Program-made: the position numbers and the translations under genes | Assembly: GCA_035390665.1 (NCBI GenBank) | Contig: DAOOUC010000011.1 | Span: 1 to 16,113 of the forward strand | From: an archaeon | Lineage (GTDB): Archaea; Iainarchaeota; Iainarchaeia; Iainarchaeales; CSSED10-239 | DNA: 16,113 bases | Direction of reading: 5' to 3' | The notes under the pieces: model-generated | What the model was told of the DNA's origin: nothing | Seen by the model: only the letters and a program-made list of their open reading frames with translations | Databases searched by the model: none | In this document: positions 1 to 16,113 of the stretch, piece by piece | Numbering within the stretch: the first letter of the stretch is position 1 | How the letters are laid out: each line of letters begins with the position of its first letter

Positions 1-1
1 C

Positions 2-1780
2 ATGTTAACAACAGGTGCAGGGGTAGCAACTGCTCGTGCAATAAAAAGAGAAATGCCAGGTGCATATGACACCGTAGATGAATTTATTAATCCAGCAATA
101 ACAAACACCACGGTAATTGGGCCACCAGGAGGGCCACCACTTGCAGGTAAGGATTTAATTAATTTTAATTCTCAATTAACTAATCAACACACATATATAT
201 CAAGATATGTAGGAACAAAACCACATAGTGCTGGTCAATTTGTATTTAATCCAGCAAATACTGCAGACGATGCATTTTTAAAAACAATTTTACCAAAAAT
301 ATCAGATAGTTCTGGTAATTTAGATTTGGTTAAATTTAATGCATTAGATCCAAAAGACTTATCTGACTTTAAAGCAGTCATCGATAGAGGAAGTTATCTT
401 GGAAAAAAAGGATTAATACAGCCAGATAAAGCCAAATTTTTAAGTAGGTTAGATACACACATTGCATCTAAAACTCCAAGTTCTTCTACAGTTGTAAAAG
501 AAATGACCGAAGATGTCTTGAATCAATCATTAAAAAGTGCAAAAGCTCAAGATAAAGCATTGAAAGCAAGAGCCGAAGCTGTACAAAGCAGACTAGATAA
601 AAAAACAAAAATAAAAAAACCATCTTTAAAAGCAAAAAAAGAAATATCTAAGCTTACAGATGAATTAGATGAAGTAAAGAAACTACAGAATGCAACTACA
701 GAGCGTTTAAAAACTTTTGAATCAGTTAAAGCAAACGGATCAAAAGGGGGAATTTATACAATAGATGATGCAGCAGCAAAAACCTTAAGTCAAGCAGATA
801 ACACAATTGCAACAATTGCAAAACCAACATCGAGATTAACAAAGTTTGGAGTTGGCGCAGGGAGATTTGCATCAGATTTACTTGTTATGTATTTCTCTAA
901 TAAATTAGCAAACGAGGCAGTAGATGTTTTAACAGAAGAAGGTCAATTAAATAATATGGTTTATGTAGATGACACAGTACCAATTAAAGAATTTAAAAAA
1001 CAAACCTGGTATAGAGTACAAATCTACAAATCAGAAAATAATTCATATAGTCAAGTATATACTTTAGAAGAACCAAATATAACTACAGAAAACATTATTT
1101 ACTATAGAACAAATACCGAAGTTGTAAAATTAATAACAACAGAACACCAAGAAGAAATGTATCAAACAAATAACCCTCAAACAAGTGATCCATATACTCC
1201 ACGCACAACCGGAAGTATAGGATTAAATACAGAGGATATAGCAACGATTGCAGAACTTCAAGCAAAAATGTTTCAAGAGAAAGAAAATCAATTAAAAGGA
1301 TACAATGATTGTTCTTTTTCTACAGTTGGTTCTGTTTGTAATAATCTAGATCCTCTTAAACCAAATTATTGTTCTGCATTTGCACAAAGAGTTGCAACAG
1401 AAGTTTATGGCATAACTTATAATCGCGGAAACGCATGTGATAGTGCAACAGTAAATTTTGGAACCAGAAATAAAGTAATTTGGCAAAGTGGAAGAGATTC
1501 AGATGAAGATTTTGAAAATTATTTAATACCCGGTGCAGCTTTAACATTAAGGAACTATGGAGGATCATTAAATTGCGATCCTTCTCATGTTGTTTTGTAT
1601 GTAGGAAAACAGAATGGATCGACACAATATATAATACATCAATGGGGAAATAAATCTCATCTTGAACCATTATTCCAATCACAAGGTGGAAGATTTAATT
1701 TATCTAAAAATGTTTATCAAATTGTAATTCCTGAAAACGGTTATACACTTTATGATCAATTTGTTACAAAGACAGCATAA
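2..1780 (+). CDS. 5'-partial protein with a Lys-rich coiled-coil segment and a C-terminal NlpC/P60-type cysteine peptidase domain
   Basis: 592-aa ORF in the track. The frame is open to the window edge, so the ATG at 2 is probably internal. TAA stop at 1778-1780. Codon and A-richness pattern matches the neighbouring genes. The C-terminal Cys/His/His motif set is described in the domain feature. Confidence 0.85.
   Translation: MLTTGAGVATARAIKREMPGAYDTVDEFINPAITNTTVIGPPGGPPLAGKDLINFNSQLTNQHTYISRYVGTKPHSAGQFVFNPANTADDAFLKTILPKISDSSGNLDLVKFNALDPKDLSDFKAVIDRGSYLGKKGLIQPDKAKFLSRLDTHIASKTPSSSTVVKEMTEDVLNQSLKSAKAQDKALKARAEAVQSRLDKKTKIKKPSLKAKKEISKLTDELDEVKKLQNATTERLKTFESVKANGSKGGIYTIDDAAAKTLSQADNTIATIAKPTSRLTKFGVGAGRFASDLLVMYFSNKLANEAVDVLTEEGQLNNMVYVDDTVPIKEFKKQTWYRVQIYKSENNSYSQVYTLEEPNITTENIIYYRTNTEVVKLITTEHQEEMYQTNNPQTSDPYTPRTTGSIGLNTEDIATIAELQAKMFQEKENQLKGYNDCSFSTVGSVCNNLDPLKPNYCSAFAQRVATEVYGITYNRGNACDSATVNFGTRNKVIWQSGRDSDEDFENYLIPGAALTLRNYGGSLNCDPSHVVLYVGKQNGSTQYIIHQWGNKSHLEPLFQSQGGRFNLSKNVYQIVIPENGYTLYDQFVTKTA
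494..736 (+). other. Lys/Glu/Ala-rich predicted coiled-coil segment of gene 1 (aa ~165-245)
   Basis: Sequence VKEMTEDVLNQSLKSAKAQDKALKARAEAVQSRLDKKTKIKKPSLKAKKEISKLTDELDEVKKLQNATTERLKTFESVKA is heptad-like, highly charged, and free of Pro/Gly except for one Pro. Confidence 0.5.
1304..1756 (+). other. NlpC/P60-like (papain-fold) peptidase domain of gene 1; candidate triad Cys457 (1370-1372), His529 (1586-1588), His546 (1637-1639)
   Basis: NYCSAFAQRVATEVYGITYNRGNA resembles the NlpC/P60 catalytic-Cys helix (DCSGfv...GI.LPR). LIPGAALTL resembles pGDlvff. SHVVLYVGKQNGSTQYIIHQ resembles gHVgiYiG..g..iHa. The order Cys-His-His is as in the family (Pfam NLPC_P60, PF00877). Recognised by eye only. 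Confidence 0.65.
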
Positions 1781-1815
1781 TCCTTTATATCTCTTTCTTT
1801 CTTTATTTATTTAAA
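1781..1815 (+). promoter_or_regulatory. 35-bp pyrimidine-rich spacer with a TATA-like TTTATAT (1784-1790), then (CTTT)x3 (1793-1804) and (ATTT)x2 (1805-1812). There is no Shine-Dalgarno before the gene 2 ATG
   Basis: The spacer contains no G at all. The TATA-like element is centred ~29 bp upstream of ATG 1816, which fits the spacing of an archaeal leaderless mRNA. The T-runs could equally be an oligo-T terminator for gene 1. TATA-like strings are common in AT-rich DNA. Confidence 0.3.
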
Positions 1816-1911
1816 ATGAAATTAAATAACAAGGGATTTACTTTATTTACTGCGTTAATTTCTTTAATATTAGTATCTATATCTTTAGCTCTTGTATTTA
1901 ACATGATTGCG
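1816..1911 (+). other. Class III (prepilin-type) signal peptide plus N-terminal hydrophobic pilin helix of gene 2
   Basis: KGFT fits both the bacterial G|FTL(I/L)E motif (except Thr instead of Glu at +5) and the archaeal [KR][GA]|[ALIFQMVED][ILMVTAS] class III pattern. Confidence 0.6.
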
Positions 1912-3525
1912 ACAGAAGAAACCTATTTAGATTTAATTCAAGATCAAGCATCTATGTCTGATTTAATAACAATGGGAGATTTAGCAAAAGCCGATGCATT
2001 TAATACTTTTTTAATTTCTTTAAGATCTAAATGGGAAGAAACTAAATCAGATCCAAACAATCCATTTAGAATACAAAGAAAGCACATAGACATGAATTGG
2101 ACAGAATTTACAGATGATTTTGTAAAAGATACTTTTTTTGAAAGAAATTTTGCAGGTTATTTTGCTCAATCTTTACTTTATAATCTAGAATATAAAGCAA
2201 ATCCCCCTGGTTATGCAATAACAATAAAAAAAGATGTTGGTTCGGTTAATGCACAAGGGGTTTACCAAGAAAATGAAAATTTTAATGAAATTATAGAACA
2301 AATATTTAGAGATGGCGGACAGAAAGTAAATATAGTAGATTGTAATCAAGATGGTGATGATTGTGTTGGTTCTTTCTATTTAACTTTAGATACAACAAAA
2401 TTATCTGACGAAAATTATGAGATGTTACCAATAATAACTGTTTTAAGATATAAAACAAACCAAGTTATTCAAAGACCAATATTAAACAGACAAGTATATA
2501 AAATATATATGCCATGGCGTGGATTTCAGGCATTTAGAGTGGTAAGAAGAATTGCATTGGGTGATGCAGAAAAAGAGGATTTTCCAGCAACATCAGAGCA
2601 GTACACTGGTTTATTTAACCCAAAACTTCACAACACTTTAGAGCAAGCAAGACTTGGTTATTGTGATCCAGGAACTTGTTCTCCTCGCCCAAACTTTTTT
2701 CAAACACCAACAAAAAAAGGATTTGATAATAAATGTAATCAAGTTCCTACAACTTCATTTTCAGGAGGTGTACCGTCAATTCTTACAGGAATATCTCTTT
2801 CTGGAAATTATGATTCAAAAGATGTAAGCAACATGAAAGAACAATTTAATACATTTTATGAAGCAGTTTTAAATCATCAATTACAATCACTTTCTGGTGC
2901 AGCATATCCAAATACCGGATTAATAATGGAAGGGAACACACACGGAGACCTTAATTTTATGGAAATAAAAGCAGAAGCGGAAGGTAAGGAAAAAACTAAA
3001 AAAATAATAGAGCAAGAAACTGTTTCAGGGATAAACATAGGTGATTATCCATCAACTACTTTTTCAGCATTACAAGATATTTCAGGAATTGCAGGTGGTA
3101 TTGGAATATATTTAAATGATAATAAATCTAGTTATATTTGGGATGAATATAATACCTGGTATTTACAACACAATAACAAAAGTGTAGGTGCAAATTCAAG
3201 TGCCGCAAGTATTAATTTTACTTGTGTTGAATTAAGAGAAACTGTATTATCTTTTAAGTTTATAGAAACGGATCCAAGATATTATGTAAGAGAAAACTAC
3301 ACAAATAATGGAATAACAACTCCTGTTTCAATAAATGTAGAATTAAGAGATACATATGCGCCTTTTTTCTTCCCTAGTTCCACAAATTTATGGAATACAC
3401 TTACAGCTGATGGAAAAGGGTATATTTCTGGCACACCTCCAGATCTTGAAGGAGATTTTGAAAATAAATGGACTTGTTATACAAAAGCCGATGGAGATGG
3501 TGCAAAGTGTGGTGTAGTGGAATAA
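1816..3525 (+). CDS. Large type IV pilin-like (prepilin-type signal) secreted protein, a possible pilus tip or minor-pilin adhesin
   Basis: 569-aa ORF from ATG 1816 to TAA 3523-3525. The N-terminus MKLNNKG|FTLFTALISLILVSISLALVFNMIA has a short basic n-region, K-G at -2/-1, F-T-L at +1..+3, then a ~25-aa hydrophobic helix, which is the prepilin peptidase substrate pattern. Paired cysteines occur throughout, including a C-terminal C-x10-C loop. Confidence 0.85.
   Translation: MKLNNKGFTLFTALISLILVSISLALVFNMIATEETYLDLIQDQASMSDLITMGDLAKADAFNTFLISLRSKWEETKSDPNNPFRIQRKHIDMNWTEFTDDFVKDTFFERNFAGYFAQSLLYNLEYKANPPGYAITIKKDVGSVNAQGVYQENENFNEIIEQIFRDGGQKVNIVDCNQDGDDCVGSFYLTLDTTKLSDENYEMLPIITVLRYKTNQVIQRPILNRQVYKIYMPWRGFQAFRVVRRIALGDAEKEDFPATSEQYTGLFNPKLHNTLEQARLGYCDPGTCSPRPNFFQTPTKKGFDNKCNQVPTTSFSGGVPSILTGISLSGNYDSKDVSNMKEQFNTFYEAVLNHQLQSLSGAAYPNTGLIMEGNTHGDLNFMEIKAEAEGKEKTKKIIEQETVSGINIGDYPSTTFSALQDISGIAGGIGIYLNDNKSSYIWDEYNTWYLQHNNKSVGANSSAASINFTCVELRETVLSFKFIETDPRYYVRENYTNNGITTPVSINVELRDTYAPFFFPSSTNLWNTLTADGKGYISGTPPDLEGDFENKWTCYTKADGDGAKCGVVE
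3475..3510 (+). other. C-terminal Cys-x10-Cys loop of gene 2 (CYTKADGDGAKC), similar to the pilin D-region disulfide loop
   Basis: Cys554 (3475-3477) and Cys565 (3508-3510) lie 4 residues from the C-terminus. Bacterial type IVa pilins carry a disulfide-bonded loop in this position. Confidence 0.4.
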
Positions 3526-3552
3526 ATAACTTATATCAGTTAATTAATATTA

Positions 3553-3607
3553 GTTTATAAACCTTTTTAGTCATTAAATAATATATAAAAAAGGTATGTT
3601 TATAAAC
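3553..3607. promoter_or_regulatory. Two copies of the perfect 10-bp palindrome GTTTATAAAC (3553-3562, 3598-3607) inside a larger imperfect inverted repeat. Candidate promoter (TATA/BRE-like) and/or operator upstream of the giant gene
   Basis: Left arm GTTTATAAACCTTTTT (3553-3568). The reverse complement of the right arm (3588-3607) is GTTTATAAAC-ATAC-CTTTTT, so the arms match apart from a 4-nt insertion. It lies in the only sizeable spacer in the window (133 bp). Further TATA-like runs are at 3620-3638, and a weak SD AAGGT at 3646-3650. Confidence 0.4.
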
Positions 3608-3658
3608 AATTATATTATCTATAATATAATATATAAAAACGAAAAAAGGTCTTAAAAA

Positions 3659-6600
3659 ATGGGTTTAAAAGAATTCTACTACAGCCTAGAAGATAAATAT
3701 TTTGAAATGCTTGATAATTTGGAGGAAAAAGGAATAAATCTTTATAAAATAATTGATCCTCTTGAGAAAAACGGAATATCTACTTTCCCTATTTTTTCGT
3801 TAATTGTTCTTGCATTAATTGCATTAATAATATTCTTATTAGTATCTAATTTTACATCAATTGGCTCAAATGAAGTAAGAATTGCTTTTTTTGATGAGAC
3901 TCAAAACCCAATACAAGACACAGATATTAAAATAAAATTAAATGGTGTTTCTGATACAGTAACTACCGACAATTCAGGTGTTGTCTATCTAAGTGATTTA
4001 GATAAAACTAAATTATATGAATTAGAATTAGATGATGCTTCTTATAAATTAATTGATAGAGATTATTATGATTTAAATCCAACAACAAAATATCATTTAA
4101 TTAATATTGAAAAAATAGAATATCAAAGTACAAAAACAATTTCTTTCAAAAAACAATCTGGGGAGTTATTATTAGAAGAATTAGATGTAATTTTTGAATG
4201 TACAAATGGGAATTATACAAGTGAAAATACAATAACAGAGGGATTAATTACCTTAAGTGATATACCAAAAGATTGTGGAAGATTAACAGTAACTATCTTA
4301 GGAAGAAACGACTATACTCCTAATATCCCAGAAGAAGGAACAGTAGGAGAAGTAAGATTTAGTGAAAGTATAAGTTATGGTACTCTTTCTATAACAGTAA
4401 AAGATAAAGATTCTTTGTTTAATTTAGCAAATGTAAATGTTTCTATTTATGATAAGGCAACAGATATGTTGATTGATAGTGATACAACAAATCAAAATGG
4501 AATAATGATTTCAGAAAGCGTAATAGTAAACAAGCAATATTATGTTTTAGTTTCTGATCCAAATTCAATATATTCTACAATTACAAAATCAGATTATCAA
4601 AATAATTTAATTTCTTTTATTCAGATAAAACAAGGAATGAATACTTTAGATTTAAAATTAAAAAAAGATATTATTGGTTTTATTGAAGTAAGAGTAAAAG
4701 ATAAAGTAACAGGTGCTCTTTTAGAAGGAGTTAATGTAAAATTATCAAGACTTGGAAACATAATGGATACTAGAGCAACAGAAGTTAATGGACAAGTAAA
4801 ATTCCCTATTAAAGAAAATGTTTCTTATATTTTAACTTTAGATAAGCCAGGCTATTTATTACAATCTCAAACTGCAAGTATTTCTTCAAATATTATAGAT
4901 ATTAGTTTAAGATCAATGACTGAAACAGGAAATTATCCTGCACATATAAATGTTGTTGATGGTGAAAGAAAAGGAATAGAATATGCCACAGTAAAAATAT
5001 GGGATGTTCTAAATAACGAAGTTGTAAAAGTTGTTACAACAGATATTTCAGGTAAAGTAGTAGTAAATAATTTAAATCCAGAAGGCACATATTTTGTAGA
5101 AGCAATTTCAGGTAAATTTACAGGAAAATCAAATAATTTCACAGTTAAAGAAAGAGAAATTGAAGAAGTTTATGCAATTGTAGAAATAGGTCAAGGGACA
5201 TATAATTTAGTAATAATGGATGATAGTCAAAATCCAATTTCTGCACCAATAAAAGTTTATGATGTAAAAAATAATAAAGAAATGGAAGAGAAAAGAACAA
5301 CATCAAATGAGAGCGGTCTTGCAATCATAAGCATTAGAGCAGATAAAACTGTATTTTTTAGTATTGAAACAGATCAAGGAAATGTAATAACAAAACAATA
5401 TAATGTTCCTGCAGAGAATACCTTTAATGAAACAATAATTATCCCTGCAAAAATTTCAAGTTCTTCAAACATAGAATTTATTGGTTTTTATAATAGTTCA
5501 GGAGAGATTGTGTCAAGTATTATTCCAGGACAAACTCAAACAGCTAGATTTTTATTAAATGTAGATAAAAAATATTCTAAAGTTGTTGCTCATTTAAGAA
5601 CAGGAGAAGGAGACACTTGTGGTACTAGAACCTATTCTGCAAATGAAGATTTTATTTATATTAAACAAGTAAGTTTTGCTGGAAGCAAAATGATTGGCTC
5701 TTTAGATTATACACCTTGCTTTGGAGAAACAAAAGATTTAGCATCAATTGTTACAAAAAACACAAAGTGGGTAAATTTAGTATTAGATAACCCAGTTGTT
5801 GGTTCTTATTTAATAGATGCAGAAATTGTAGTGTTAGATAGTGCTACAACAAATCAATCAATCTATTATAGAGCAGAATATCAACAAGGAACAACAGTAT
5901 TAAGAAACCCATTAGATGCAACAATCGGAACAAGTACAAGTTCTTCAACAAAGCAAGCACTATATGCTTATGCTAAAAATTTGCCAATCTTTGTAGGAGA
6001 TACAAGTAACTGTGATGGTAGTATTTGTTATTCTTTTGCATTTAGAGAAAAAAACACATCTCAAGATAAAAGAGTAATAGATAAATTTTCAGCAAAAGAT
6101 GGGACAGATTATAAATTTAAATTTAGATTTGGAGTTTTAAGACCAGTAAGTGATGCAACAATTAAAATTTCAACAACAGGTCAAACAATTAAATTAAATA
6201 GCTATACTATTAGTCCAGCAGGAAGCTTACCAATAGTAGATACAGAGTTTTCAGATATTGACATAGGAAGTATTTCAGCTAACGACATAGTAACAGGCGA
6301 AGTTGATTTATCTGTAATAAACGATATTAGTGATGAATTAGTAATTGAGATTAGCTCAAATGGAGACGCAGTCTTTGAAAAGAAAATATTATTTGATTTA
6401 AAACCTTCAAAGAATTTTACTGTAGAATTCTTACCAAAGATGGTTGTGCCATATATTCCAAACAATGCAATAATTGGGGTAATGGATGATACAAATAAAT
6501 CAGTAATGGATGCAAGTGTATTTGTTAAGATTAACTCAAAACCAATCATTGATGGAAAAACAAACAGAGAAGGTCTATTTACATTTATATTACCTGCAAC

Positions 6601-9600
6601 AAATATAAATGATGTTATAGAAATAAATGTAAGAAAACAAGGATATAGAACAAATACAATTAAGTATGTTGTTACTGAGAATATTATAACTACAATTCCA
6701 GAATCTATAGAACTAAATATAGATATTTCTCAAAATTATTCTACATCTACAAATATAATTTTAATTAATAATACAGTTTTACCATTATCAATAACATCAA
6801 TAAAAACAAATGTTAATTCAGAATATGTAAAATTAACAAGTGCATCTCAAGGTATGATATTTGAACCAAATTCACAGGTTGCATTAGATTTAACTGCAAG
6901 ATTAACCGAAGCAGGAATAGATTTAATGACACAAAAAACAATTAAAGGAACATTGTTGATTACTGTAAATGAATCAAATTTTGAAAAGAACTGGCAAATA
7001 TCTATTCCAATAACAATAAGAATTACTTTTGGTCAAGCAATTGATAATACCAATTGTTTAATTATTGATCCAGAAGAAACAGAAATAAGAATGACAGATA
7101 CAGAATATGCTTATAATTTAAATATTACAAATGATTGTCAAGTAGGAGAGGTTCCAGTTTCTTTAAATAAAATATTTATAGAATCAAATTATAAAGACAC
7201 CAAAAAACTTGGAGACTTTTATGTAGTTATTGGTGCTCAAGAGAAGAAATTAGCATTAGAAGAAAAAATACAAGTATTAAATAGTTTAGATGCTGGAAAG
7301 AAAGCAACTATAAAACTAATATATAAGATGAATAATAATACAAAAGGTGGAATATCTACCCCAGTAATAAGATTGACATCTAATAGAGCAAACATAAATG
7401 GAGTAGATACAATTGTTTCAGAACATTTGCCAAAGATAATTATAAACAATTATATCAATTGTATTGAAACACCAACAACTCAAATTATTGTGCCATATTG
7501 TGCACCAGTTTCATTATACAATAATATGTTTGGAATGGGCCCATATACAAATTTCTCACAAAATTTTGATCCAACAATGTACAATCAACAATCAACAACT
7601 ATTCCTGGTCAATCATATTGGCAATCAACAGCATATGCCCCAAGCTATGCGATGAGTGATTTCTATAATAATCAAAACTTCCCATATAACAATTTTACAG
7701 AAGGAATGCAAGGGTATCCAATGTCTGGAATGACAAACGGGCAAACAGGTTGTCAAGCAGCACAAATACAAGTTAAAAATAGTTGTTATGATGAAGTAGA
7801 ATTAAAGTTTGATTCATTAGCTGGTGTAATTATTAGTTCAGGTCAAGAGATGGCATTAAAGAAAGGAGAAAGTAAGACATTAACTGTTCAAGGTGGACAA
7901 GTATTAGGTGAATATAAAATTGCAATGTCTGCAAAACCAACAGATGATGCAATAGAAGAATATACTTTCGTAAAAGATTTGCCTGTAATAGTAAATAGAC
8001 CATTAGAGATATTACCTGAAAATTGTATAATTGTACCTAAAACAAAGTTTGATTTTACATACACTACAGATATACAAAAATTAATGGTAATAAATAGTTG
8101 TTATGATGCAGGGTTTGCATTAACATCATTAAGAATATTAAATCCAGATGTATTAATGATTGGAGATGTTCAATACTTCTCAATAGGAGATGTAAATGCA
8201 ACATTAAGACCAAAGAAAACCTACAGATATGAAGAAGGAAAAAGAATTGAAATAATGACTGTTGGAGTAAGAAGAAATCCAGAGATTGGAAGAAAGATGT
8301 TAAATAATGATAATGACACAACAGCAAAAACAATATCAAATCTAAGAAAAAATTACTTTGATATTGGCAATTCAATTAATTTAACAGCAATACTTGGAAT
8401 AAGTTATTCTACTCCAAGATTACAAGGTGGAGAGAAAGAAGAAGAATTAACATTTACAGATAATTTACAATGGTTAGGTTATGTTGATGAAAACAAAACA
8501 GAAGAAACAAATACAAATACAGACACAGGCACCGGAACAACAGGGACAGGAACAACACCAGGAACTACAAATGCAGATGTAAGTACAAGAATAAACATTG
8601 ACTTTACAACAGGGAATTCAAATCAAATACCTGCAGGTCCAGCAATAGAGTTTACTGAATTTGCATTAAATGATAATTCTGGTGCAATTGGAATATTAGT
8701 AAAAATTAAAGATTCATATTTAGATGATAAAAGTGATTTCTTTAATAATGAAACAGACGCAAGAGTTTGTTTTAATGGAGTAATTTCAGACTTTAAGAAA
8801 GCAAGTCCAAGTATTTTTGAGAAATTAACTGAAAAGTCATATATAGATAAAAACGAAAAAGGAAGAATACAAAACGGAGAAGTAATTTCAGAAATACATT
8901 TCTTTGAAAAAGGAACAATCTTTAAAGTTTGTTTAAGTAGACCATTAACTCCATTAAATACAGCAGATGGTAAATTTGATAGAGCAGTATATAGAGAAGA
9001 AACAGATGTTTCAAAAGAAAAAATATTTACAATAATGAATCCAAAATGGTGGATATTTAAAGATTCATCAGTATATAAAGTAAAGTTTGCATTAAGTGCA
9101 AATCTTGGAACCTTTGGTTACATTGAGAAAACAAATGTTCCAGAATATTTAAAAGACAGTCCAAGATTACAAGATGGAGAATGTCTTGATCCTAAAGGAT
9201 TTGAGAAATTAGGTTTTACAGGATCTAATTATGACAACTATGGATTCAATAGATTATTGTTTACATGGAATCCAGCAGAAATTAAACACAACACTTGTGA
9301 TTATGGATACATTTATTGTGATCAAGATCAATTAAGAATTGCATTTTCACAAAAAATGGATTATTTAGCAAATAATAAATTTATAGAATTAGATGGAATA
9401 AAATTCTTAAAGTCTGATTCTGTTGCAAAGATTGCAAAGAATGAATTATTATTAGATAAGAATCCATTAAATAAAGAATTAATTGAAAATGCAGTAAGTA
9501 GTAATGCAATTGATTCAGCAGAAGAAACAAAATTAAAAATAACAAAATTAAGAGCAATAATAAACACAGTTCCGGAGGCATTAAGAAAATACACAATTAT

Positions 9601-11350
9601 AGAAATTGCAATACCTGTTGGGGCTATAGAAGGATTAGAGCCAATTGATTTAAATGCAGAAAAAGTAGAAGCATTTACAACAAAGATGGCAGGATCTACA
9701 AAGATTACTTTCGAGAATACAAATACAATTAAAAGATATCAATTTAATGTAAATACCTTCTTAAATACAACAAGTAATTTATCAACAGAAATTGATGGAT
9801 TATCTGATGCAGAAAATAAACTATTAAGTGAATATTTAAGAAGATTTATTAATTCAATGAACGTTTATTATGGAGACACATTAACTCCAGTAATAATTAA
9901 TGCAAAAACATATGGCAGTTTAGAAAGCGGAGCAACAAAAGATATATTGTCTAAACCACAATTTTTAAACAATGCTTGGGAATTAAATTTAAAATCAAGT
10001 TCAGAAATAAAACAAATTAGTTCTCCAGCAACATATAAGATAACTTTAGATATAAATAATTCTTCAAGTAAGAAAGCAAATTATGATGTTACAGCAATAA
10101 ATGCGGGAGTAGATGCATACAGTACAAATAACAATTATAAGCAAAATATCTTCTTTACAAACCCAGTAAATGCATACTACTATAACTATGGCGGAATACC
10201 ATTCAAAACAGAAGAAAGAGGAGAAAGAAAACAAACAGAATTAATAAATAGTTTTAACAATTGGGCAAAAGTACAAGACGGAATTGTATTAAAAGCAAAT
10301 ACAGCAAATAATGCAATTTCAAATGTTTTATTTAAAGACATAAGACCAATACAAATTGTTTCTACAGTTGCAAATGATTATCGTGTAGAATACTTAGCTC
10401 AAGAGAAATATAATAATTTAGTTGAAAACATGGAATGGAGATTAAGTGCCGAAGAACAAAAATTAATAAAACAAACAATACAAAGAACAGGTTCTTCAAC
10501 AAATGGATATCAATTATTAAATTATAATAGTAGACCAACAACATTTAGAAATACAATATTTGTATTTAATAATTCAGCAGATAAATCAAAATTAGAACAT
10601 CAATTAAGAATATATTCAAGAAATGAATTATTATTCAATGTAACTCCAATATCATTACAAATGACAAATGTTTCAGACAATAAAGCATATGGTTATGCTA
10701 TACCAAAGAACCTAACAACAGTTACAGGTTATGTTGGTAAATTAGATGCTGACACAGCAACAGTAAATGGAATGATTAAGAGTATACAAAAAGAAAAGAT
10801 GTGTTTTAATTTTAATAATGGCACATTTAATTTGTGGATTAATCCCGCAGATAAATCAATTGTAGAAGTTGTAGAAGTAGAGACCCAACCAACAACATCT
10901 CAACAAACAGCACAAGTACCTCAACAAACAACACAAACAGAATCAACTACAACTCAGACTATTGCAAATTTAACAATTACTGGTGGAAGTTTTAGTGTGG
11001 ATACTTCAGTAACAAGTCAAACAACAGTAAATGTTATTGGAGATAATTTAACAATGGATTTAGCTAATAAAAAATTAAATGGGGTTGTAAAATTTGAAAG
11101 TGGTAACCAAAATGCAACAGTAAATATTACAAGTGGTACAGCCGTAATTTCAGGCAATAATGTAACCTTAACAATAAATGGGACTGCAAGCGCAGGCCTA
11201 ATGGGCACAATAAGAGTTACAACACAAGGTACTCTTAATACAACAGGAAATCAAAATTTAGATGGAACATATACAATTGTTGCAAATCAATCAGTAAATG
11301 TAAATGGTCCACAATTAGCATTAGTAAATATTAATTTTAATAAGCAATAA
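3659..11350 (+). CDS. Giant (2563 aa) N-terminally membrane-anchored surface or adhesin-like protein
   Basis: Uninterrupted ORF in the track, ending in TAA at 11348-11350. The start is supported by the conserved MGLK..YY N-terminus shared with gene 4. It has a single TM helix, tandem beta-sandwich repeats, many Cys pairs and N-x-S/T sequons, and Thr-rich linkers. Confidence 0.95.
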   Translation: MGLKEFYYSLEDKYFEMLDNLEEKGINLYKIIDPLEKNGISTFPIFSLIVLALIALIIFLLVSNFTSIGSNEVRIAFFDETQNPIQDTDIKIKLNGVSDTVTTDNSGVVYLSDLDKTKLYELELDDASYKLIDRDYYDLNPTTKYHLINIEKIEYQSTKTISFKKQSGELLLEELDVIFECTNGNYTSENTITEGLITLSDIPKDCGRLTVTILGRNDYTPNIPEEGTVGEVRFSESISYGTLSITVKDKDSLFNLANVNVSIYDKATDMLIDSDTTNQNGIMISESVIVNKQYYVLVSDPNSIYSTITKSDYQNNLISFIQIKQGMNTLDLKLKKDIIGFIEVRVKDKVTGALLEGVNVKLSRLGNIMDTRATEVNGQVKFPIKENVSYILTLDKPGYLLQSQTASISSNIIDISLRSMTETGNYPAHINVVDGERKGIEYATVKIWDVLNNEVVKVVTTDISGKVVVNNLNPEGTYFVEAISGKFTGKSNNFTVKEREIEEVYAIVEIGQGTYNLVIMDDSQNPISAPIKVYDVKNNKEMEEKRTTSNESGLAIISIRADKTVFFSIETDQGNVITKQYNVPAENTFNETIIIPAKISSSSNIEFIGFYNSSGEIVSSIIPGQTQTARFLLNVDKKYSKVVAHLRTGEGDTCGTRTYSANEDFIYIKQVSFAGSKMIGSLDYTPCFGETKDLASIVTKNTKWVNLVLDNPVVGSYLIDAEIVVLDSATTNQSIYYRAEYQQGTTVLRNPLDATIGTSTSSSTKQALYAYAKNLPIFVGDTSNCDGSICYSFAFREKNTSQDKRVIDKFSAKDGTDYKFKFRFGVLRPVSDATIKISTTGQTIKLNSYTISPAGSLPIVDTEFSDIDIGSISANDIVTGEVDLSVINDISDELVIEISSNGDAVFEKKILFDLKPSKNFTVEFLPKMVVPYIPNNAIIGVMDDTNKSVMDASVFVKINSKPIIDGKTNREGLFTFILPATNINDVIEINVRKQGYRTNTIKYVVTENIITTIPESIELNIDISQNYSTSTNIILINNTVLPLSITSIKTNVNSEYVKLTSASQGMIFEPNSQVALDLTARLTEAGIDLMTQKTIKGTLLITVNESNFEKNWQISIPITIRITFGQAIDNTNCLIIDPEETEIRMTDTEYAYNLNITNDCQVGEVPVSLNKIFIESNYKDTKKLGDFYVVIGAQEKKLALEEKIQVLNSLDAGKKATIKLIYKMNNNTKGGISTPVIRLTSNRANINGVDTIVSEHLPKIIINNYINCIETPTTQIIVPYCAPVSLYNNMFGMGPYTNFSQNFDPTMYNQQSTTIPGQSYWQSTAYAPSYAMSDFYNNQNFPYNNFTEGMQGYPMSGMTNGQTGCQAAQIQVKNSCYDEVELKFDSLAGVIISSGQEMALKKGESKTLTVQGGQVLGEYKIAMSAKPTDDAIEEYTFVKDLPVIVNRPLEILPENCIIVPKTKFDFTYTTDIQKLMVINSCYDAGFALTSLRILNPDVLMIGDVQYFSIGDVNATLRPKKTYRYEEGKRIEIMTVGVRRNPEIGRKMLNNDNDTTAKTISNLRKNYFDIGNSINLTAILGISYSTPRLQGGEKEEELTFTDNLQWLGYVDENKTEETNTNTDTGTGTTGTGTTPGTTNADVSTRINIDFTTGNSNQIPAGPAIEFTEFALNDNSGAIGILVKIKDSYLDDKSDFFNNETDARVCFNGVISDFKKASPSIFEKLTEKSYIDKNEKGRIQNGEVISEIHFFEKGTIFKVCLSRPLTPLNTADGKFDRAVYREETDVSKEKIFTIMNPKWWIFKDSSVYKVKFALSANLGTFGYIEKTNVPEYLKDSPRLQDGECLDPKGFEKLGFTGSNYDNYGFNRLLFTWNPAEIKHNTCDYGYIYCDQDQLRIAFSQKMDYLANNKFIELDGIKFLKSDSVAKIAKNELLLDKNPLNKELIENAVSSNAIDSAEETKLKITKLRAIINTVPEALRKYTIIEIAIPVGAIEGLEPIDLNAEKVEAFTTKMAGSTKITFENTNTIKRYQFNVNTFLNTTSNLSTEIDGLSDAENKLLSEYLRRFINSMNVYYGDTLTPVIINAKTYGSLESGATKDILSKPQFLNNAWELNLKSSSEIKQISSPATYKITLDINNSSSKKANYDVTAINAGVDAYSTNNNYKQNIFFTNPVNAYYYNYGGIPFKTEERGERKQTELINSFNNWAKVQDGIVLKANTANNAISNVLFKDIRPIQIVSTVANDYRVEYLAQEKYNNLVENMEWRLSAEEQKLIKQTIQRTGSSTNGYQLLNYNSRPTTFRNTIFVFNNSADKSKLEHQLRIYSRNELLFNVTPISLQMTNVSDNKAYGYAIPKNLTTVTGYVGKLDADTATVNGMIKSIQKEKMCFNFNNGTFNLWINPADKSIVEVVEVETQPTTSQQTAQVPQQTTQTESTTTQTIANLTITGGSFSVDTSVTSQTTVNVIGDNLTMDLANKKLNGVVKFESGNQNATVNITSGTAVISGNNVTLTINGTASAGLMGTIRVTTQGTLNTTGNQNLDGTYTIVANQSVNVNGPQLALVNINFNKQ
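3782..3847 (+). other. Signal-anchor transmembrane helix of gene 3 (aa ~42-63, TFPIFSLIVLALIALIIFLLVS)
   Basis: It is the only long uncharged hydrophobic stretch in the protein. It is preceded by a charged ~40-aa segment. Confidence 0.8.
3872..5383 (+). repeat. Six tandem carboxypeptidase-regulatory-like / PEGA-like beta-sandwich repeats (protein-level repeats, aa ~72-575)
   Basis: A recurring pattern of ~60-65 aa, for example IEVRVKDKVTGALLEGVNVKLSRLGNIMDTRATEVNGQVKFPIKENVSYILTLDKPGYL and AHINVVDGERKGIEYATVKIWDVLNNEVVKVVTTDISGKVVVNNLNPEGTYFVEAISGKF. This is the v.V.D..g.pi.gA.V.l........TD..G...f..l..g.Y.v.v...GY signature of CarboxypepD_reg (PF13620). A seventh copy sits at aa ~920-1000. 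Confidence 0.7.
6686..8458 (+). other. Series of Ig-like modules with an ASH/PapD-like 'h-x-h-x-N-x-C' strand motif and an upstream partner Cys (aa ~1010-1600)
   Basis: NIILINNTVLPLSITSI; NCLIIDPEETEIRMTDTEYAYNLNITNDCQVGEVPVSLN; CQAAQIQVKNSCYDEVELKF; NCIIVPKTKFDFTYTTDIQKLMVINSCYDAGFALTS. Confidence 0.45.
7511..7756 (+). other. Lys/Arg-free Q/N/Y/M/G/P-rich low-complexity insert (aa ~1285-1366), bracketed by Cys1281 and Cys1365
   Basis: LYNNMFGMGPYTNFSQNFDPTMYNQQSTTIPGQSYWQSTAYAPSYAMSDFYNNQNFPYNNFTEGMQGYPMSGMTNGQTG has no K or R in ~79 residues of an otherwise Lys-rich protein. Confidence 0.8.
8501..8578 (+). other. Thr/Gly/Asn-rich linker (TEETNTNTDTGTGTTGTGTTPGTTNAD)
   Basis: Low-complexity ACA/GGA codon run that separates the Ig-like stalk from the unassigned distal region. 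Confidence 0.8.
10883..10963 (+). other. Thr/Gln-rich linker (QPTTSQQTAQVPQQTTQTESTTTQTIA)
   Basis: Low-complexity stretch immediately before the C-terminal Asn/Thr-rich domain. Confidence 0.8.
10964..11347 (+). other. C-terminal Asn/Thr/Gly/Val-rich beta-solenoid-like domain, dense in N-x-S/T sequons, with no C-terminal anchor
   Basis: NLTITGGSFSVDTSVTSQTTVNVIGDNLTMDL...NATVNITSGTAVISGNNVTLTINGTASAGLMGTIRVTTQGTLNTTGNQNLDGTYTIVANQSVNVNGPQLALVNINF shows short periodic (T/S)VN(V/I)xG strands. Confidence 0.45.
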
Positions 11351-11384
11351 AAGAGTAAAAAAATAAAACAATATAATAATTAAA

Positions 11385-11389
11385 AGGTG
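11385..11389 (+). promoter_or_regulatory. Shine-Dalgarno AGGTG for gene 4, 5 nt upstream of ATG 11395
   Basis: ttaaaAGGTGtaaaaATG. The 44-bp spacer after gene 3 has no T-run or hairpin, which suggests co-transcription of genes 3 and 4. Confidence 0.6.
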
Positions 11390-11394
11390 TAAAA

Positions 11395-14300
11395 ATGGGA
11401 CTAAAAAATATATATTATTTCTTTGAAAATAAATGGTATGATTTTGTAGAAAAAACAGGGTTGTACAAAGTAACAGATAAGATAGACAAAGTAATGCCTT
11501 CTTTTTTGCTATTTATTTTAATTATTATAATGCTTATTGCAGGGATATTTTTGATGATACCTTCAATTCAGGGAAAAGGAGAAGCAACAATAAGTTTCTC
11601 TGTTCTTGATGATGAAGGAAATTCTGTGCCTCTTGCACCAATAATGGTATCTACAGAAACAGATAATTTTAGACTTACAACAGATGATTACGGTACAACT
11701 GAACCAATTTCTTTAAAGAAAGATTCAGAGATATATGTTTCTATTGATTATTCTGGTTCTAATTATGAAAAGTATTCAAATAATTTTGTAATTTCAGACA
11801 ATCAAGAAATTGTAATCTATTTAGATAATGCAGAATCTGAAACTCAAAAAGTAAATTATAATTTTTCTTTAGTTGATTCTTTAACAAGTGCAAATATTCC
11901 AAATGATGGTTCTATTGTTTTTAGTTGTAGAAATTTAGGGCCAATTGCTCCAGGAACAGTAACAGTTATTGGAGGAGTTGTAGAAGTACAAGCAGATAGT
12001 GCCTGTCAGTTAGTTGCTCAATCAATTTCAATACAAGGTTATGAAACAAAATATGGAGTAAGTATTTCTCCACAAACAAGTATGATTGATTTAACAAAAT
12101 TAAGTATTGGTTTTGAAGAACAACAAACATATTCTCTATATATTTCAGTAAATAATGAAGCAGGAAATCCATTGTCTTCAATGCAAGCAAAACTATATCA
12201 AAATAATGTTGAGATAATTGGCGGAAATTGTTTAACTGCAAATGGAGTTTGTACAATTACAGGATTAGAGTCTGGAAGTTATACTCTTAAAGTTACAGAC
12301 ACTAGAACAAATGCAGAATATGGTCAAGCACAATCTTCTGTATATATTTCAAGTAATACAAATCAACCAATCACAATGACTAGAAATATTGCAGGATATA
12401 TACTAGTAAAAGTTAAAAAAAGTAATAATCAAGCAATTTCTGGTGCAACCGTAACTTTAAAATACATAGATAATGATAATGTAGATATTGCAAGCTATAC
12501 AACAGATTCAGATGGCCAAGCATATTTGGCAGTTTATGATCTTACAAAAAGATATAGGGTTGTTGTAGATAAAGAAGATTATTTGATTGCTTCCCAAAGT
12601 AATATTGTTGCAGTAGCAAACTATCCAACTAATCCAACAGTTACAATAACTTTACAACAAATTACTCCAACAACAGCAGCTCAATTAAAGTTAAGAGTAA
12701 TTAATAGTGAAACAGGAAAAGGTTTTCCAAATGCACAAGTTGTGTTATATAGTTCTGATACAGGATTTTTAACAGACTATAAACCAAAAATGACAAATAG
12801 TGATGGTAATGTTACTTTTGTTGTAAGTTCTGGAAACTATTATGCTAAAGCATTTAAGGGTTCATCAATAGGATTAAGTGAAGAATTTGAATTTAATGTT
12901 AGAGATGCAACAACAGCTGAAGCAAAAATAATACCAATGGAAATAACAAAAGGAAATTTATTAGTAACAGTTGTGGATAAGGACGGAGAGGCAGTTCCAC
13001 ATGCAAACATATTATTATTTGATAGATATAATTCTAGAACACCAATTTGGGGTGGAGATTTAGCAAACATAGATGGAACTTATGAAATAACTGAAATTGT
13101 TTCTGATCAAGACGTTTATGTTGTTGTTTCTGATATTATTTCAAATCTTGGTTCAACACAGTCTGAATTTGTGTATATTAAACCAAATGAAACAAACGAA
13201 TTAAAAGTAACTTTATATAATAAAATTAATGCTTCTCAAAAACCAAAGATTGAATTTTTAGGTTTCTTTAATGATTCAGGAAGTAGATTAAATGGATACA
13301 TAAGAAGTGGAGCAGAATACAAAGCAAAATTTTTATTATTAATTCCTTCAGAAAGGTGGGATTCTGATTTAGAAGAATTTGAAGAAGTTGGAGCAATATT
13401 AAGAACAGGTTCTTCAAACACCCCATATATGGAAAACGATAGTATTTATATTAAAGATATAGTTTTACCAAACTCAGAAATACAAAAATTTACACAATAT
13501 AGTTCAGAAGATGGTTATGATGGAAAAGACGATGTAGACACAAGAACAGAAGGAGATGCAAAATGGGCAAAGGTTATCTTTAATCCAATCAATAACAGAG
13601 ACTATGCAACAGCATATACAATAATGGCAGATTTAAAAGTTAAAGATGATGCAGCATATGGAGAAAAAGTAGATATTCATTATTTAGGTTTTGGATATAA
13701 TGAAGATGAAGAATATGAAAGTGATCCAGTAGATAATACAAATAATGATGATGTAGAATACATGACCTACAAAACAGAAAGTTTCAATATTGGAGAAGAA
13801 CAAGCGTGTTCTGATGATTTCTGTTTTACATTAAATATCACAAACTTAGATGAAGACTTAAGAGAAGACGTAGTAGATAACTATAATGCAAAACCACAAC
13901 AGAATTATAAATTAAGATTTGGTTTAATTAATAACAATAAAGACAGAATATATACAAATAATTCAAGATTTGAAATAAAGAATGCAGATAAAGGACTTAT
14001 CTTTAAAGATATAAACTTTACACAACCAAATTCATCACACACAAATATTAATGTAATCCCAGATACTTACGAATATAAAATAACAACACAACAATTTAAT
14101 CCACACAGTACAATAAGTGGAGAAATACAATTTGTTCCAAGTCTAAAAGGAGACAGACAAATATTATTACAATATGTTTCTGATCAAAGAATTGTATTTA
14201 CAAGATTAATTAACATACATGTTTTATCAGATAAAACATTTAAAGTAGAAATAACCCCTGAAGTTATTCCATCAGGTAAAAACTTTAATTTAGAATTAGA

Positions 14301-16113
14301 AATTAAAGATGAACAAACAGGAATTGAAGTTGATAAACAAGTTACTGTTAGTGTAAAAGATAGATTCAAAAAAGATTTAATTTCTAATGTTTTAGTTGGC
14401 GCTTTAGGTAAAGTTTCAATTACAAACATACCTGGTCAAGAAACAGGAAATAAAGTTTATGTTTATGTTCAAGCTCCAGAGTATGAGACACATATTTCTG
14501 AAATTGAAGTTACAGAGAATATATTTAAAGTAACTCCAACTAAAATTGGTGTTTCATTAAACATCAATACAAAAACAGAAGAGACTGCAAAATTCACTAT
14601 TGAAAATTTAAGTGAAAATTCTTTAGTAATTGAGTCAATTAGATTTGTTGGAGATGAAACAAAATTAGAATCACTAGATATTGCAAGAATAAATACAGCA
14701 TTATCTGGATATTATGATATTGAAATTCCAGGAATTGTAAAAGATGAAACAACTTATAATAATAAGAAAGAAATTGATGCAAAATTCTTTACAAGCCCAA
14801 GAGCTCAAACACTTAAAGAAGTAAAGAATTTGTCTTCTAATCTTGTTATTAAATTAAGAGACAAATATAATAAGCAATATTCTTGGGAAATGGAACTTCC
14901 AGTAACAATAACTGTTGGTTTTGAAGGATTAATGGATAATTCCAATTGTATTACTCTTTCAGAAGGAATGTGGGAAACAACAGTTGTTGATAAATATGTA
15001 GATACACAATTTACTTTGAAAAACAACTGTGGGGTAAATAGTAGACCTGTTCCATTAAACGGAGGCTTGTCTGCAAAGGTAGAATTTGAAGGCAATCCAT
15101 TAGGTGTATTTACTGTAGATGTTGGTACAAGAAAAGTAGAATTATCACACGGATATTTTAAATCAATTTATGATACTGTAGATTCAGAAAAAGTATATAG
15201 TGTTAATTTAAGATACACTCCTGTTGGAAGATATACAGGAGATATAAAAGGAAAAATAATATTTAGATCTCTAAATACAACAAACCAAGGAAGTCAAGAA
15301 CTATTAACCGAATATAAGTTTACACTACACGTAGTAAGCTTAAGTGACTGTTATGTTCTTTCAAAGAAAGTATTAACAGCAAAAGAAACTGGAGAAGCAG
15401 ATTCATTTACTATAGAAAATAAAAATTGTGGATCTCAAACAGTCTATAGACTTTCATGTGATGAATGTAATGGTCTTGTATTAAATCCAAAAGAAAACAT
15501 AACTGTTCCAGCAACAGGAAGTAGTGAAGAAATAAAAGTAATGTCAATGGGTGCAATGCCAGGAGTATATTTATTAAATGTTTACTCTAAAGTTGGTGGA
15601 GCAAGAGGACACGAGAGAAATGTTGGAAAAGTTAGAGTAGAAGTAAGACCTAACACTCAATGTCTTGACCTTGACAGATACGAATATGATCTTTATAGAT
15701 ATCAATACTCAGAAAACACAGGACAAGAAGTAAAAGCAAAAAGCTTTGATACAGGAAATATAATCAACCGTTGTTATGGTCAAACAGTAAAAGTACAAGG
15801 AGAAGTCAAAGACTCTGCAAAATGGCAAGTTGCCCTATTTAACGGAGTAAGAGACGGATTATTTACTGGTGCAACATCTGGTTTAATAAACGCAATGATT
15901 CCAGACAAAAATGCAGAATGTAATACTGGAATTTTAGGAATAGGGAAGAAAGCATGTCCTGAAGGTTTTGATTGTAAATCAGGAAAATGTGTTGCAAAAG
16001 AAGTAACTCCTCCTGTAAATAATGAACAAAATCAAAAAAACTTAGAAAAAGTATGTAATCCTGCTTGTGCTGATACTCATGAATGTGTAAATGGTGCATG
16101 TCAATTAAAAGTT
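11395..16113 (+). CDS. Second giant N-terminally anchored surface protein, a paralogue of gene 3 (3'-partial, at least 1573 aa)
   Basis: Not in the supplied track. I translated frame 1 codon by codon from ATG 11395 to 16113 and found 1573 sense codons with no stop. The start is MGLKNIYYFFENKWYDFVEKTGLYKVTDKIDKVMPSFLLFILIIIMLIAGIFLMIPS. The SD is at 11385-11389. Every track ORF in this interval is a short minus-strand shadow. It shares many collinear motifs with gene 3. Confidence 0.9.
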   Translation, partial: MGLKNIYYFFENKWYDFVEKTGLYKVTDKIDKVMPSFLLFILIIIMLIAGIFLMIPSIQGKGEATISFSVLDDEGNSVPLAPIMVSTETDNFRLTTDDYGTTEPISLKKDSEIYVSIDYSGSNYEKYSNNFVISDNQEIVIYLDNAESETQKVNYNFSLVDSLTSANIPNDGSIVFSCRNLGPIAPGTVTVIGGVVEVQADSACQLVAQSISIQGYETKYGVSISPQTSMIDLTKLSIGFEEQQTYSLYISVNNEAGNPLSSMQAKLYQNNVEIIGGNCLTANGVCTITGLESGSYTLKVTDTRTNAEYGQAQSSVYISSNTNQPITMTRNIAGYILVKVKKSNNQAISGATVTLKYIDNDNVDIASYTTDSDGQAYLAVYDLTKRYRVVVDKEDYLIASQSNIVAVANYPTNPTVTITLQQITPTTAAQLKLRVINSETGKGFPNAQVVLYSSDTGFLTDYKPKMTNSDGNVTFVVSSGNYYAKAFKGSSIGLSEEFEFNVRDATTAEAKIIPMEITKGNLLVTVVDKDGEAVPHANILLFDRYNSRTPIWGGDLANIDGTYEITEIVSDQDVYVVVSDIISNLGSTQSEFVYIKPNETNELKVTLYNKINASQKPKIEFLGFFNDSGSRLNGYIRSGAEYKAKFLLLIPSERWDSDLEEFEEVGAILRTGSSNTPYMENDSIYIKDIVLPNSEIQKFTQYSSEDGYDGKDDVDTRTEGDAKWAKVIFNPINNRDYATAYTIMADLKVKDDAAYGEKVDIHYLGFGYNEDEEYESDPVDNTNNDDVEYMTYKTESFNIGEEQACSDDFCFTLNITNLDEDLREDVVDNYNAKPQQNYKLRFGLINNNKDRIYTNNSRFEIKNADKGLIFKDINFTQPNSSHTNINVIPDTYEYKITTQQFNPHSTISGEIQFVPSLKGDRQILLQYVSDQRIVFTRLINIHVLSDKTFKVEITPEVIPSGKNFNLELEIKDEQTGIEVDKQVTVSVKDRFKKDLISNVLVGALGKVSITNIPGQETGNKVYVYVQAPEYETHISEIEVTENIFKVTPTKIGVSLNINTKTEETAKFTIENLSENSLVIESIRFVGDETKLESLDIARINTALSGYYDIEIPGIVKDETTYNNKKEIDAKFFTSPRAQTLKEVKNLSSNLVIKLRDKYNKQYSWEMELPVTITVGFEGLMDNSNCITLSEGMWETTVVDKYVDTQFTLKNNCGVNSRPVPLNGGLSAKVEFEGNPLGVFTVDVGTRKVELSHGYFKSIYDTVDSEKVYSVNLRYTPVGRYTGDIKGKIIFRSLNTTNQGSQELLTEYKFTLHVVSLSDCYVLSKKVLTAKETGEADSFTIENKNCGSQTVYRLSCDECNGLVLNPKENITVPATGSSEEIKVMSMGAMPGVYLLNVYSKVGGARGHERNVGKVRVEVRPNTQCLDLDRYEYDLYRYQYSENTGQEVKAKSFDTGNIINRCYGQTVKVQGEVKDSAKWQVALFNGVRDGLFTGATSGLINAMIPDKNAECNTGILGIGKKACPEGFDCKSGKCVAKEVTPPVNNEQNQKNLEKVCNPACADTHECVNGACQLKV
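11500..11565 (+). other. Signal-anchor transmembrane helix of gene 4 (SFLLFILIIIMLIAGIFLMIPS)
   Basis: Hydrophobic stretch at the same relative position as in gene 3. Confidence 0.8.
11581..13218 (+). repeat. Six tandem carboxypeptidase-regulatory-like beta-sandwich repeats of gene 4
   Basis: For example GYILVKVKKSNNQAISGATVTLKYIDNDNVDIASYTTDSDGQAYLAVYDLTKRYRVVVDKEDYL and GNLLVTVVDKDGEAVPHANILLFDRYNSRTPIWGGDLANIDGTYEITEIVSDQDVYVVVSD. The second repeat carries a Cys pair, as does the second repeat of gene 3. Confidence 0.7.
14521..15660 (+). other. ASH/PapD-like Ig modules of gene 4 with the same N-x-C strand motif
   Basis: TAKFTIENLSENSLVIESIRF; NCITLSEGMWETTVVDKYVDTQFTLKNNCGVNSRPVPLN; DCYVLSKKVLTAKETGEADSFTIENKNCGSQTVYRLS. 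Confidence 0.45.
15919..16113 (+). other. Cys-rich mini-modules (two copies of A-C-x5-C-x2-G-x-C) separated by a Pro/Asn/Gln linker, at the window edge
   Basis: ACPEGFDCKSGKC (15952-15990) and ACADTHECVNGAC (16063-16101), each preceded by one further Cys (15919, 16054). Confidence 0.55.

Follow-up and report, generated by a model that had tools for sequence, protein, structure and literature searches.

A conserved N-terminal segment of about 40 amino acids (aa), here called the leader, was analyzed in two giant surface proteins encoded at positions 1 to 16,113 of the forward strand of contig DAOOUC010000011.1 (the window, 16,113 nucleotides [nt]). The window has a G+C content of 28% and carries four genes (g1 to g4), all in the same direction. 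An ENA digester contig has the identical sequence, as does the start of a 47-kb JGI contig. The homologues are labeled 'archaeon', 'Candidatus Diapherotrites', 'Candidatus Iainarchaeum', or 'Micrarchaeota', which points to a DPANN archaeon related to Iainarchaeota as the source, an assignment that rests on these labels, not marker genes. The genes and the elements of the leader are given below with their operon positions (G0 to G2), Shine-Dalgarno (SD)-like sites, and transmembrane (TM) helices; leader helices and their predicted local distance difference test (pLDDT) values come from AlphaFold2 (AF2).

2..1780, forward strand: gene 1 (g1), C-terminal 592 aa of the upstream giant G0, 5' end cut
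1816..3525, forward strand: gene 2 (g2), 569 aa, pilin-like, class III-type N terminus (MKLNNKGFTLFTALISL...)
3646..3650, forward strand: SD-like AAGGT, 8 nt 5' of the gene 3 ATG, read from sequence
3659..11350, forward strand: gene 3 (g3), 2563-aa giant surface protein, operon position G1
3659..3787, forward strand: gene 3 leader, residues 1-43, AF2 pLDDT about 90
3665-3727, forward strand: gene 3 leader helix 1, residues 3-23 (AF2), followed by the turn EKGIN
3743-3769, forward strand: gene 3 leader helix 2, residues 29-37 (AF2)
3779-3787, forward strand: gene 3 boundary motif S-T-F, residues 41-43; P-S-F in most family members
3788..3853, forward strand: single TM helix of gene 3, residues 44-65 (AF2 helix 42-65), probable uncleaved signal anchor
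11384..11389, forward strand: SD-like AAGGTG, 5 nt 5' of the gene 4 ATG, read from sequence
11395..16113, forward strand: gene 4 (g4), giant surface protein truncated at the window end, operon position G2
11395..11505, forward strand: gene 4 leader, residues 1-37 (AF2, alignment, 23 orthologues), with helix 1 at residues 3-21 and helix 2 at residues 24-31 (AF2, pLDDT ~80-93) and P-S-F at residues 35-37
11506..11568, forward strand: TM helix of gene 4, residues 38-58 (AF2 helix 36-58)

Gene 1 clusters with the giants and is a piece of G0, not a separate small gene; its homologue on the JGI contig is likewise cut, at 740 aa. Gene 4, separated from gene 3 by 44 nt, has 1573 aa inside the window, and its full copies have 1682-1778 aa. 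The SD-like AAGGT supports the annotated start of gene 3, and thus the leader as the true N terminus of that protein.

Bases 3659-3847 correspond to codons 1-63 of gene 3 and bases 11395-11565 to codons 1-57 of gene 4, and the coordinates and sequences quoted for both leaders in a sequence-only reading of the window were exact. The same reading held that the leader is better conserved than most of the ectodomains, which was borne out at both levels of comparison. Between genes 3 and 4, an alignment of just the leaders has 16 identities in 32 residues, a score reached by 0 of 20,000 shuffles, against 23% identity over ~1,000 aa of the ectodomains, and the N-terminal ~95 aa align by BLASTP with E = 1e-6. 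Among the 23 gene 4 orthologues, all of which keep it, the leader is nearly invariant (MGLKKLYYNLEDKYYSFVERTGLYKITDKIDKVMPSF) while overall identity drops to 40%; mean column identity is 0.79 in the leader, 0.61 in the TM helix, and 0.47 in the rest, and none of the 159 other 37-aa windows equals the leader as the best conserved. Synonymous changes between relatives are numerous at conserved leader codons (13/28, 11/29, and 10/39), which places the constraint on the protein; an RNA- or DNA-level element as the cause of the conservation was thereby ruled out.

The consensus of the top profile hits reads (M)G-[LI]-K-x-phi-Y-[YF]-x-L-E-D-K-[YW]-Y-x-phi-L-D-K-[IL]-[DN]-x-K-[IV]-P-[VI]-Y-K-[IV]-[IV]-D-P-I-D-K-[VI]-x-P-S-F and is followed by the hydrophobic helix. 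Conservation by profile position, given as upper bounds because the sequences were profile-selected, is highest at Y7 (100%), E11 (99%), Y15 (97%), Y28 (97%), D32 (93%), and D35 (96%) and in the boundary motif P39 (100%), S40 (94%), and F41 (92%), followed by the charged positions D19 (84%) and K4 (83%). Both leader helices are amphipathic, and Tyr and Trp, as interfacial residues, abound in the leader. By eye, its second half resembles a duplicated [DE]-K-(G)-[IV]-P-x-[YF], seen as EKGINLY and EKNGISTF in gene 3 and as KGIPVY and KGIPSF in many relatives. The gene 4 leader is a shorter variant with ~6 residues fewer between the helices.

A search of 1.84 billion representative proteins with a profile of 47 leader positions gave 760 matches with E ≤ 1e-3, of which 375 had E ≤ 1e-10. 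The matched segment lay almost always immediately ahead of the sole hydrophobic helix, and among the best 150 matches it started almost always within residues 1-20. Word-index searches returned one fragment only with gene 3 residues 1-153 and nine short fragments with the leader alignment, where words from the TM helix probably swamped the candidates. Loci were collected from GTDB (75) and metagenomes (45), together with the loci of orthologues; the pattern YK[IV][IV]DPID biases the genome matches toward one leader subtype. Among 141 newly found matches, 89 had at least 1,000 aa, with the longest at 3,251 aa, and many of the short ones stop mid-domain. The first ~80 loci held 126 leader matches, and 82 of the 90 3'-complete carriers were at least 1,000 aa long (median, 2,367 aa). 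The profile search proposed in the sequence-only reading thus confirmed a restriction of the leader to giants: leaderless homologues in the same loci are smaller paralogues, mostly of 780-1,100 aa, with ordinary Sec signal peptides, and visibly degenerate leaders were seen in a few giants. Short carriers adjoin fragments of split giants, and such splits account for most of the 'short' leader-bearing database proteins. At locus L004 (1.8x coverage), the gene 3 homologue is divided into a 94-aa open reading frame (ORF) with the leader (1024-1308) and an 844-aa ORF (1461-3992), probably by an assembly or frameshift artifact.

Outside the leader, the 124 carriers with 700 aa or more are all linked in one homology network. 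The leader is therefore the inherited N terminus of one diverse superfamily, and a portable or mobile module on unrelated cargo was ruled out by this single network. Judged by their sequences, the carriers are a large superfamily of giant, predicted single-pass surface proteins of about 1,200-3,250 aa, encoded by Iainarchaeota/Diapherotrites-like DPANN archaea.

AF2, run with family alignments for both window genes, predicted the same architecture for each, namely, a helix, a short helix, a TM helix of 23-24 residues, and a beta-sandwich starting at residue 73 in gene 3 and residue 63 in gene 4 (pLDDT 80-95). In Foldseek searches with leader, TM helix, and first domain, only the beta-sandwich was matched, to transthyretin-like, CnaB, and Gram-positive pilin domains. 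Extracytoplasmic-type Pfam domains detected in the giants were CarboxypepD_reg, Big_1, SpaA, and cadherin, the first three of them in gene 4; gene 3 contains 40 N-X-S/T sequons, and Cys-rich modules are also present. Among the 114 carriers that reach 1,000 aa, 109 have exactly one segment of strong hydrophobicity, which follows the leader, and none has such a segment at the C terminus; an anchor or sortase signal at that end was thereby ruled out for the giants. The single TM helix on the N-terminal side and the extracellular-type C-terminal part are both features of the type II class. The uncharged run from P-S-F onward has a median of 29 residues and exceeds the h-region of a signal peptide. 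With this full-length TM helix and no RR in the gene 3 leader, the gene 4 leader, or the family consensus, the earlier statement that the leader is neither a Sec nor a twin-arginine translocation (Tat) signal of the canonical kind stands.

In several variants, the leader is preceded by other sequence: a 150-aa Lys/Glu-rich repeat region (P0096), 95 acidic residues (P0136), 40-50 residues (P0070, with 50 aa, and P0047), a Sec-type signal peptide with one TM helix (P0104), or three TM helices (P0125). In all of them, the leader is directly joined to the last TM helix and the ectodomain comes after that helix. Because the leader stays at the TM helix behind these extensions, the variants fit a cytoplasmic juxtamembrane domain and do not fit an extension of a signal-peptide n-region. 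Sequence and models together indicate that the leader is most likely juxtamembrane and cytoplasmic, on an uncleaved type II (N-in, C-out) anchor, and that cleavage by signal peptidase after the TM helix is unlikely.

For the leader as a whole, we propose a cytoplasmic two-helix domain that is retained on an uncleaved signal anchor and contacts a partner, a reading to which the sequences and models give about an even chance. Helix 1 would be the amphipathic, Tyr-rich part (phi-K-x-phi-Y-Y-x-L-E-D-K-Y-Y-x-x-L-D) and helix 2 a short amphipathic one within I-P-V-Y-K-I-I-D-P-I-D-K, followed by P-[ST]-F, which hardly varies, at the membrane boundary, one TM helix of 23-24 residues as the uncleaved signal anchor (N-in, C-out), and beta-sandwich adhesin-type domains from 5-10 residues past that helix. 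The leader would remain in the cytoplasm on the mature protein and bind a conserved cytoplasmic or membrane partner or the leaders of other giants. This contact may serve a step common to all giants, the co-translational delivery or insertion of very long chains, or alternatively the assembly or retention of the giants in one surface complex. A specific contact is probable because every giant of an operon with three to four giants keeps the leader while the ectodomains diverge, and because the invariant charged (E, D, and K) and proline positions are constrained as strongly as the hydrophobic face. Our confidence is higher for the topology and lower for the role, for which docking to a cytoplasmic partner is probably the better reading; we infer docking, assembly, and targeting alike from sequence.

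A number of observations weigh against this proposal. The alignments behind the AF2 models are shallow, with 18-22 sequences. The difference in charge between the two sides of the TM helix, though in the N-in direction, is weak (net charge of -1.3 in the leader, +0.3 in the last 15 residues before the helix, and -1.5 after it). The P-x-x-x-G right after the helix in gene 4 orthologues is a possible signal-peptidase c-region, and some of the long N-terminal extensions may be mis-called starts. No binding partner emerged from the genes adjoining the giants in the loci, and no secretion ATPase, signal recognition particle or Sec component, or peptidase was consistently adjacent in the collected loci, so that the suggested co-occurrence with a specific secretion or sorting gene was not found.

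The loci are of two types. Type A, to which the window belongs, comprises, in this order, G0, the pilin-like g2 family, G1 (g3), G2 (g4), G3, and small membrane proteins, that is, three to four giants plus the pilin-like gene; a 160-aa multi-TM protein is sometimes inserted between G1 and G2. Type B comprises, again in order, a helicase, a leader-bearing giant of ~1,750 aa, a protein of ~565 aa with a Sec signal peptide, and a paralogue of ~880 aa that also has a Sec signal peptide. Full-length G0 proteins in related loci have 2,400-3,100 aa and a diverged leader with the pattern ...F..Y..LE..Y..F..WL..KGIP......L..KGIP[AS]F. Leaders from different genomes have an identity of 0.52 when both are G1 and 0.55 when both are G2, compared to 0.44 between the G1 and G2 leaders of one genome. 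The leader subtypes are thus position-specific, which implies that the paralogues are old and that each kept its own version; concerted evolution of the leaders within a genome was ruled out, as same-position leaders across genomes are more alike.

The start of gene 2, MKLNNKGFTLFTALISLILVSISL, is a class III (type IV pilin-like) N terminus with K-G directly before F. Its family (~500-600 aa, Cys-rich, N terminus KGF[TSN]LF[TS]AL) lies between G0 and G1, directly 5' of G1 as the first leader-bearing giant after it, in 32 loci. Gene 2 had no Pfam or NCBIfam family at threshold, with weak subthreshold matches to ComGF/ComGE pilin N termini, and no PilB/PilC-like genes were present within ±10 kb of 120 or more loci.

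The sole recognizable sorting-type gene encodes a 165-230-aa protein of the exosortase/archaeosortase family and lies directly upstream of G0 in seven loci, at the positions given below. It scored 33-45 bits on TIGR04178 (cut-off 23) and matched no named subtype at its own cut-off.

Locus L106, 73-642: archaeosortase-family gene
Locus L107, 1459-1953: archaeosortase-family gene
Locus L110, 606-1151: archaeosortase-family gene
Locus L112, 134-826: archaeosortase-family gene
Locus L118, 752-1270: archaeosortase-family gene
Locus L120, 832-1389: archaeosortase-family gene
Locus L122, 95-742: archaeosortase-family gene

Known substrates of the archaeosortase/exosortase family carry C-terminal signals. 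No C-terminal sorting signal was found in the proteins of the operons with this upstream gene; since the giants lack such signals, the archaeosortase link is a lead only. The ~565-aa protein of Type B ends with [IL]-P-[LFG]-[IL], a TM helix, and KKxKK (L075, 15421-17124, and 15 other Type B loci), and this tripartite C-terminal tail could be a real archaeosortase-family substrate signal. The ~160-aa multi-TM protein between G1 and G2 occurs in AR10-like genomes (L010, 9292-9777; L007, 8954-9436) and not in the window, and the small membrane proteins c10, c12, and c15 follow the last giant in several loci; no family match was obtained for the multi-TM protein or for the small membrane proteins c5, c10, c12, and c15.

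Of the other explanations of the leader, one makes it an extended, cleavable Sec signal peptide in which an n-region extension of the ESPR, YSIRK, or KxYKxGKxW kind tunes the timing or location of giant export, and which signal peptidase I removes together with the hydrophobic segment. This would explain why the leader is at or near the N terminus and why only giant exported proteins have it, with plain signal peptides on the smaller paralogues, and the Pro and small residues right after the hydrophobic run in gene 4 orthologues agree with it. We consider it improbable, as the helix of 23-24 residues and the median uncharged run are too long for it, a leader that follows hydrophilic extensions of 95-150 aa, or a signal peptide and a TM helix, cannot act as an n-region, and cleavage would leave the giants without any membrane anchor. 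Pfam scans of full proteins and isolated leaders (E ≤ 10) and an NCBIfam scan of both leaders (E ≤ 10) gave subthreshold noise only for the leader, so that none of the three models was matched; a PDB sequence search with the leader profile gave nothing similar, and literature searches found no description of the leader motif or of the giant operons. In large glycosylated adhesins of Gram-positive bacteria, KxYKxGKxW (TIGR03715) is a long N-terminal leader rich in Tyr and Lys. The archaeal leader is also a long N-terminal Tyr/Lys-rich motif on large adhesins, but it is acidic, not basic, is predicted to be helical, and has no accessory Sec genes nearby. ESPR (PF13018) is a conserved N-terminal motif ahead of the export segment in autotransporters and two-partner-secretion proteins of Gram-negative bacteria, mostly very large surface proteins. 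The leader likewise is conserved, stands ahead of a hydrophobic export segment, and occurs on very large surface proteins; it differs in that its carriers are archaeal, that its hydrophobic segment is a full TM helix and the only possible anchor, not a short h-region, with cleavage unlikely, and that it stays juxtamembrane even when it is not N-terminal. In Gram-positive bacteria, the YSIRK motif, located in the export region, sends some of the surface proteins along a trafficking route of their own (PMC5962339). The leader resembles YSIRK/GXXS (PF04650 and TIGR01168) as a conserved motif within an N-terminal export region and differs from it in motif, length, and predicted structure and in the absence of a C-terminal LPXTG-type anchor from the giants. 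The analogy with ESPR and YSIRK drawn in the sequence-only reading was therefore not upheld.

A second explanation places processing on the cytoplasmic face, where a prepilin-peptidase-like or other membrane protease would cut a class III-like or new sorting signal between P-S and F, and the freed hydrophobic helix would let the giants join the pilin-like protein in a fiber or surface complex. Prepilin peptidases cut N-terminal to the H-domain, exactly where P-S-F is conserved in the leader (PMC6098224). Further likenesses to archaeal class III signals (PibD, EppA, and FlaK) are the position of a short invariant motif right before the hydrophobic domain, Phe at +1 in both the giants and the pilin-like protein, and the co-encoded pilin-like gene itself, with KGF(T/S/N)LF(T/S)AL, directly upstream of the giants. 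Residues -2/-1 are, however, Pro-Ser and not [KR]-[GA]; the ~40 structured residues far exceed the known length of a class III leader, and the 'pilin' would have 2,000-3,000 aa. Genes for an assembly ATPase or a platform protein of the PilB/PilC type, or for a peptidase, were seen in none of the loci, and a discarded propeptide seldom needs two conserved amphipathic helices, all of which makes such a cut quite unlikely. Comparably doubtful is a broader version in which leader, P-[ST]-F, and TM helix would together be a novel N-terminal signal for sorting or processing, specific to giant archaeal surface proteins and recognized by a dedicated membrane enzyme, which perhaps cuts between P-S and F; a prepilin-peptidase-like protease and the upstream archaeosortase-family protein would be candidates. 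If this were true, processing would let three to four giants and the pilin-like subunit form one very large surface or attachment apparatus on DPANN cells. The short Pro-x-Phe-type motif, TM helix, and charged flank, and the archaeosortase-family gene upstream in the seven loci, recall PGF-CTERM/PEP-CTERM; those signals, in contrast, stand at the C terminus and have their motif on the outer side of the membrane, and the leader stands at the N terminus and has its motif on the inner side. A passive foot in the plane of the membrane is also unlikely, if somewhat easier to envisage: the two helices would lie on the cytoplasmic leaflet and strengthen the anchor of a 2,000-3,000-aa ectodomain with no specific partner. 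The amphipathic helices, the abundance of interfacial Tyr and Trp, the constant adjacency to the TM helix, and the confinement to very large ectodomains are all in keeping with such a foot. Its net negative charge would be unfavorable on an anionic leaflet, and E11, D19, D32, D35, K4, and the prolines are conserved like the hydrophobic face, which counts against a foot because generic lipid binding needs none of that.

The retained cytoplasmic domain that contacts a partner is the reading we favor over these. In relation to the systems compared, the leader is, as far as its sequence tells, an unmodeled variant among the conserved N-terminal modules by which giant surface proteins are exported or anchored. 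To our knowledge, it is the first such module described in archaea.

The genomes of DPANN archaea are tiny, and 30-40 kb of these genomes are spent on operons of giant surface proteins, which plausibly are the interface of the cells with hosts or substrates. The leader is the most conserved single feature of these giants and is without a Pfam or NCBIfam model; its 47-position signature can be used to find such giants in metagenomes. It defines their predicted topology as type II anchored and points to a shared cytoplasmic step, which may be targeting, insertion, or assembly. Should it prove to be a recognition signal, archaea would for the first time have a counterpart to the special leaders found at the N termini of very large adhesins in bacteria.

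Several other regions of the two giants stand out in the window. Residues 2372-2400 of gene 3 (10772-10858) form a C-terminal module, MIKSIQKEKMCFNFNNGTFNLWINPADKS, that is conserved among G1-type giants with the pattern ...(I/L)x(D/S)(V/I)..L(V/I)....CV/F......F(W)WNP(K).... and is, after the leader, their second recognizable landmark. Low-complexity or otherwise special regions of gene 3 lie at 7520-7750, 8498-8575, and 10880-10960 and comprise an N/Q/Y/M-rich stretch (residues 1288-1364) and Thr/Gly-rich and Thr/Gln-rich linkers. At the window end, gene 4 runs into a Cys-rich, EGF-like segment (15916-16104; CPEGFDCKSGKC...CNPACADTHECVNGAC).

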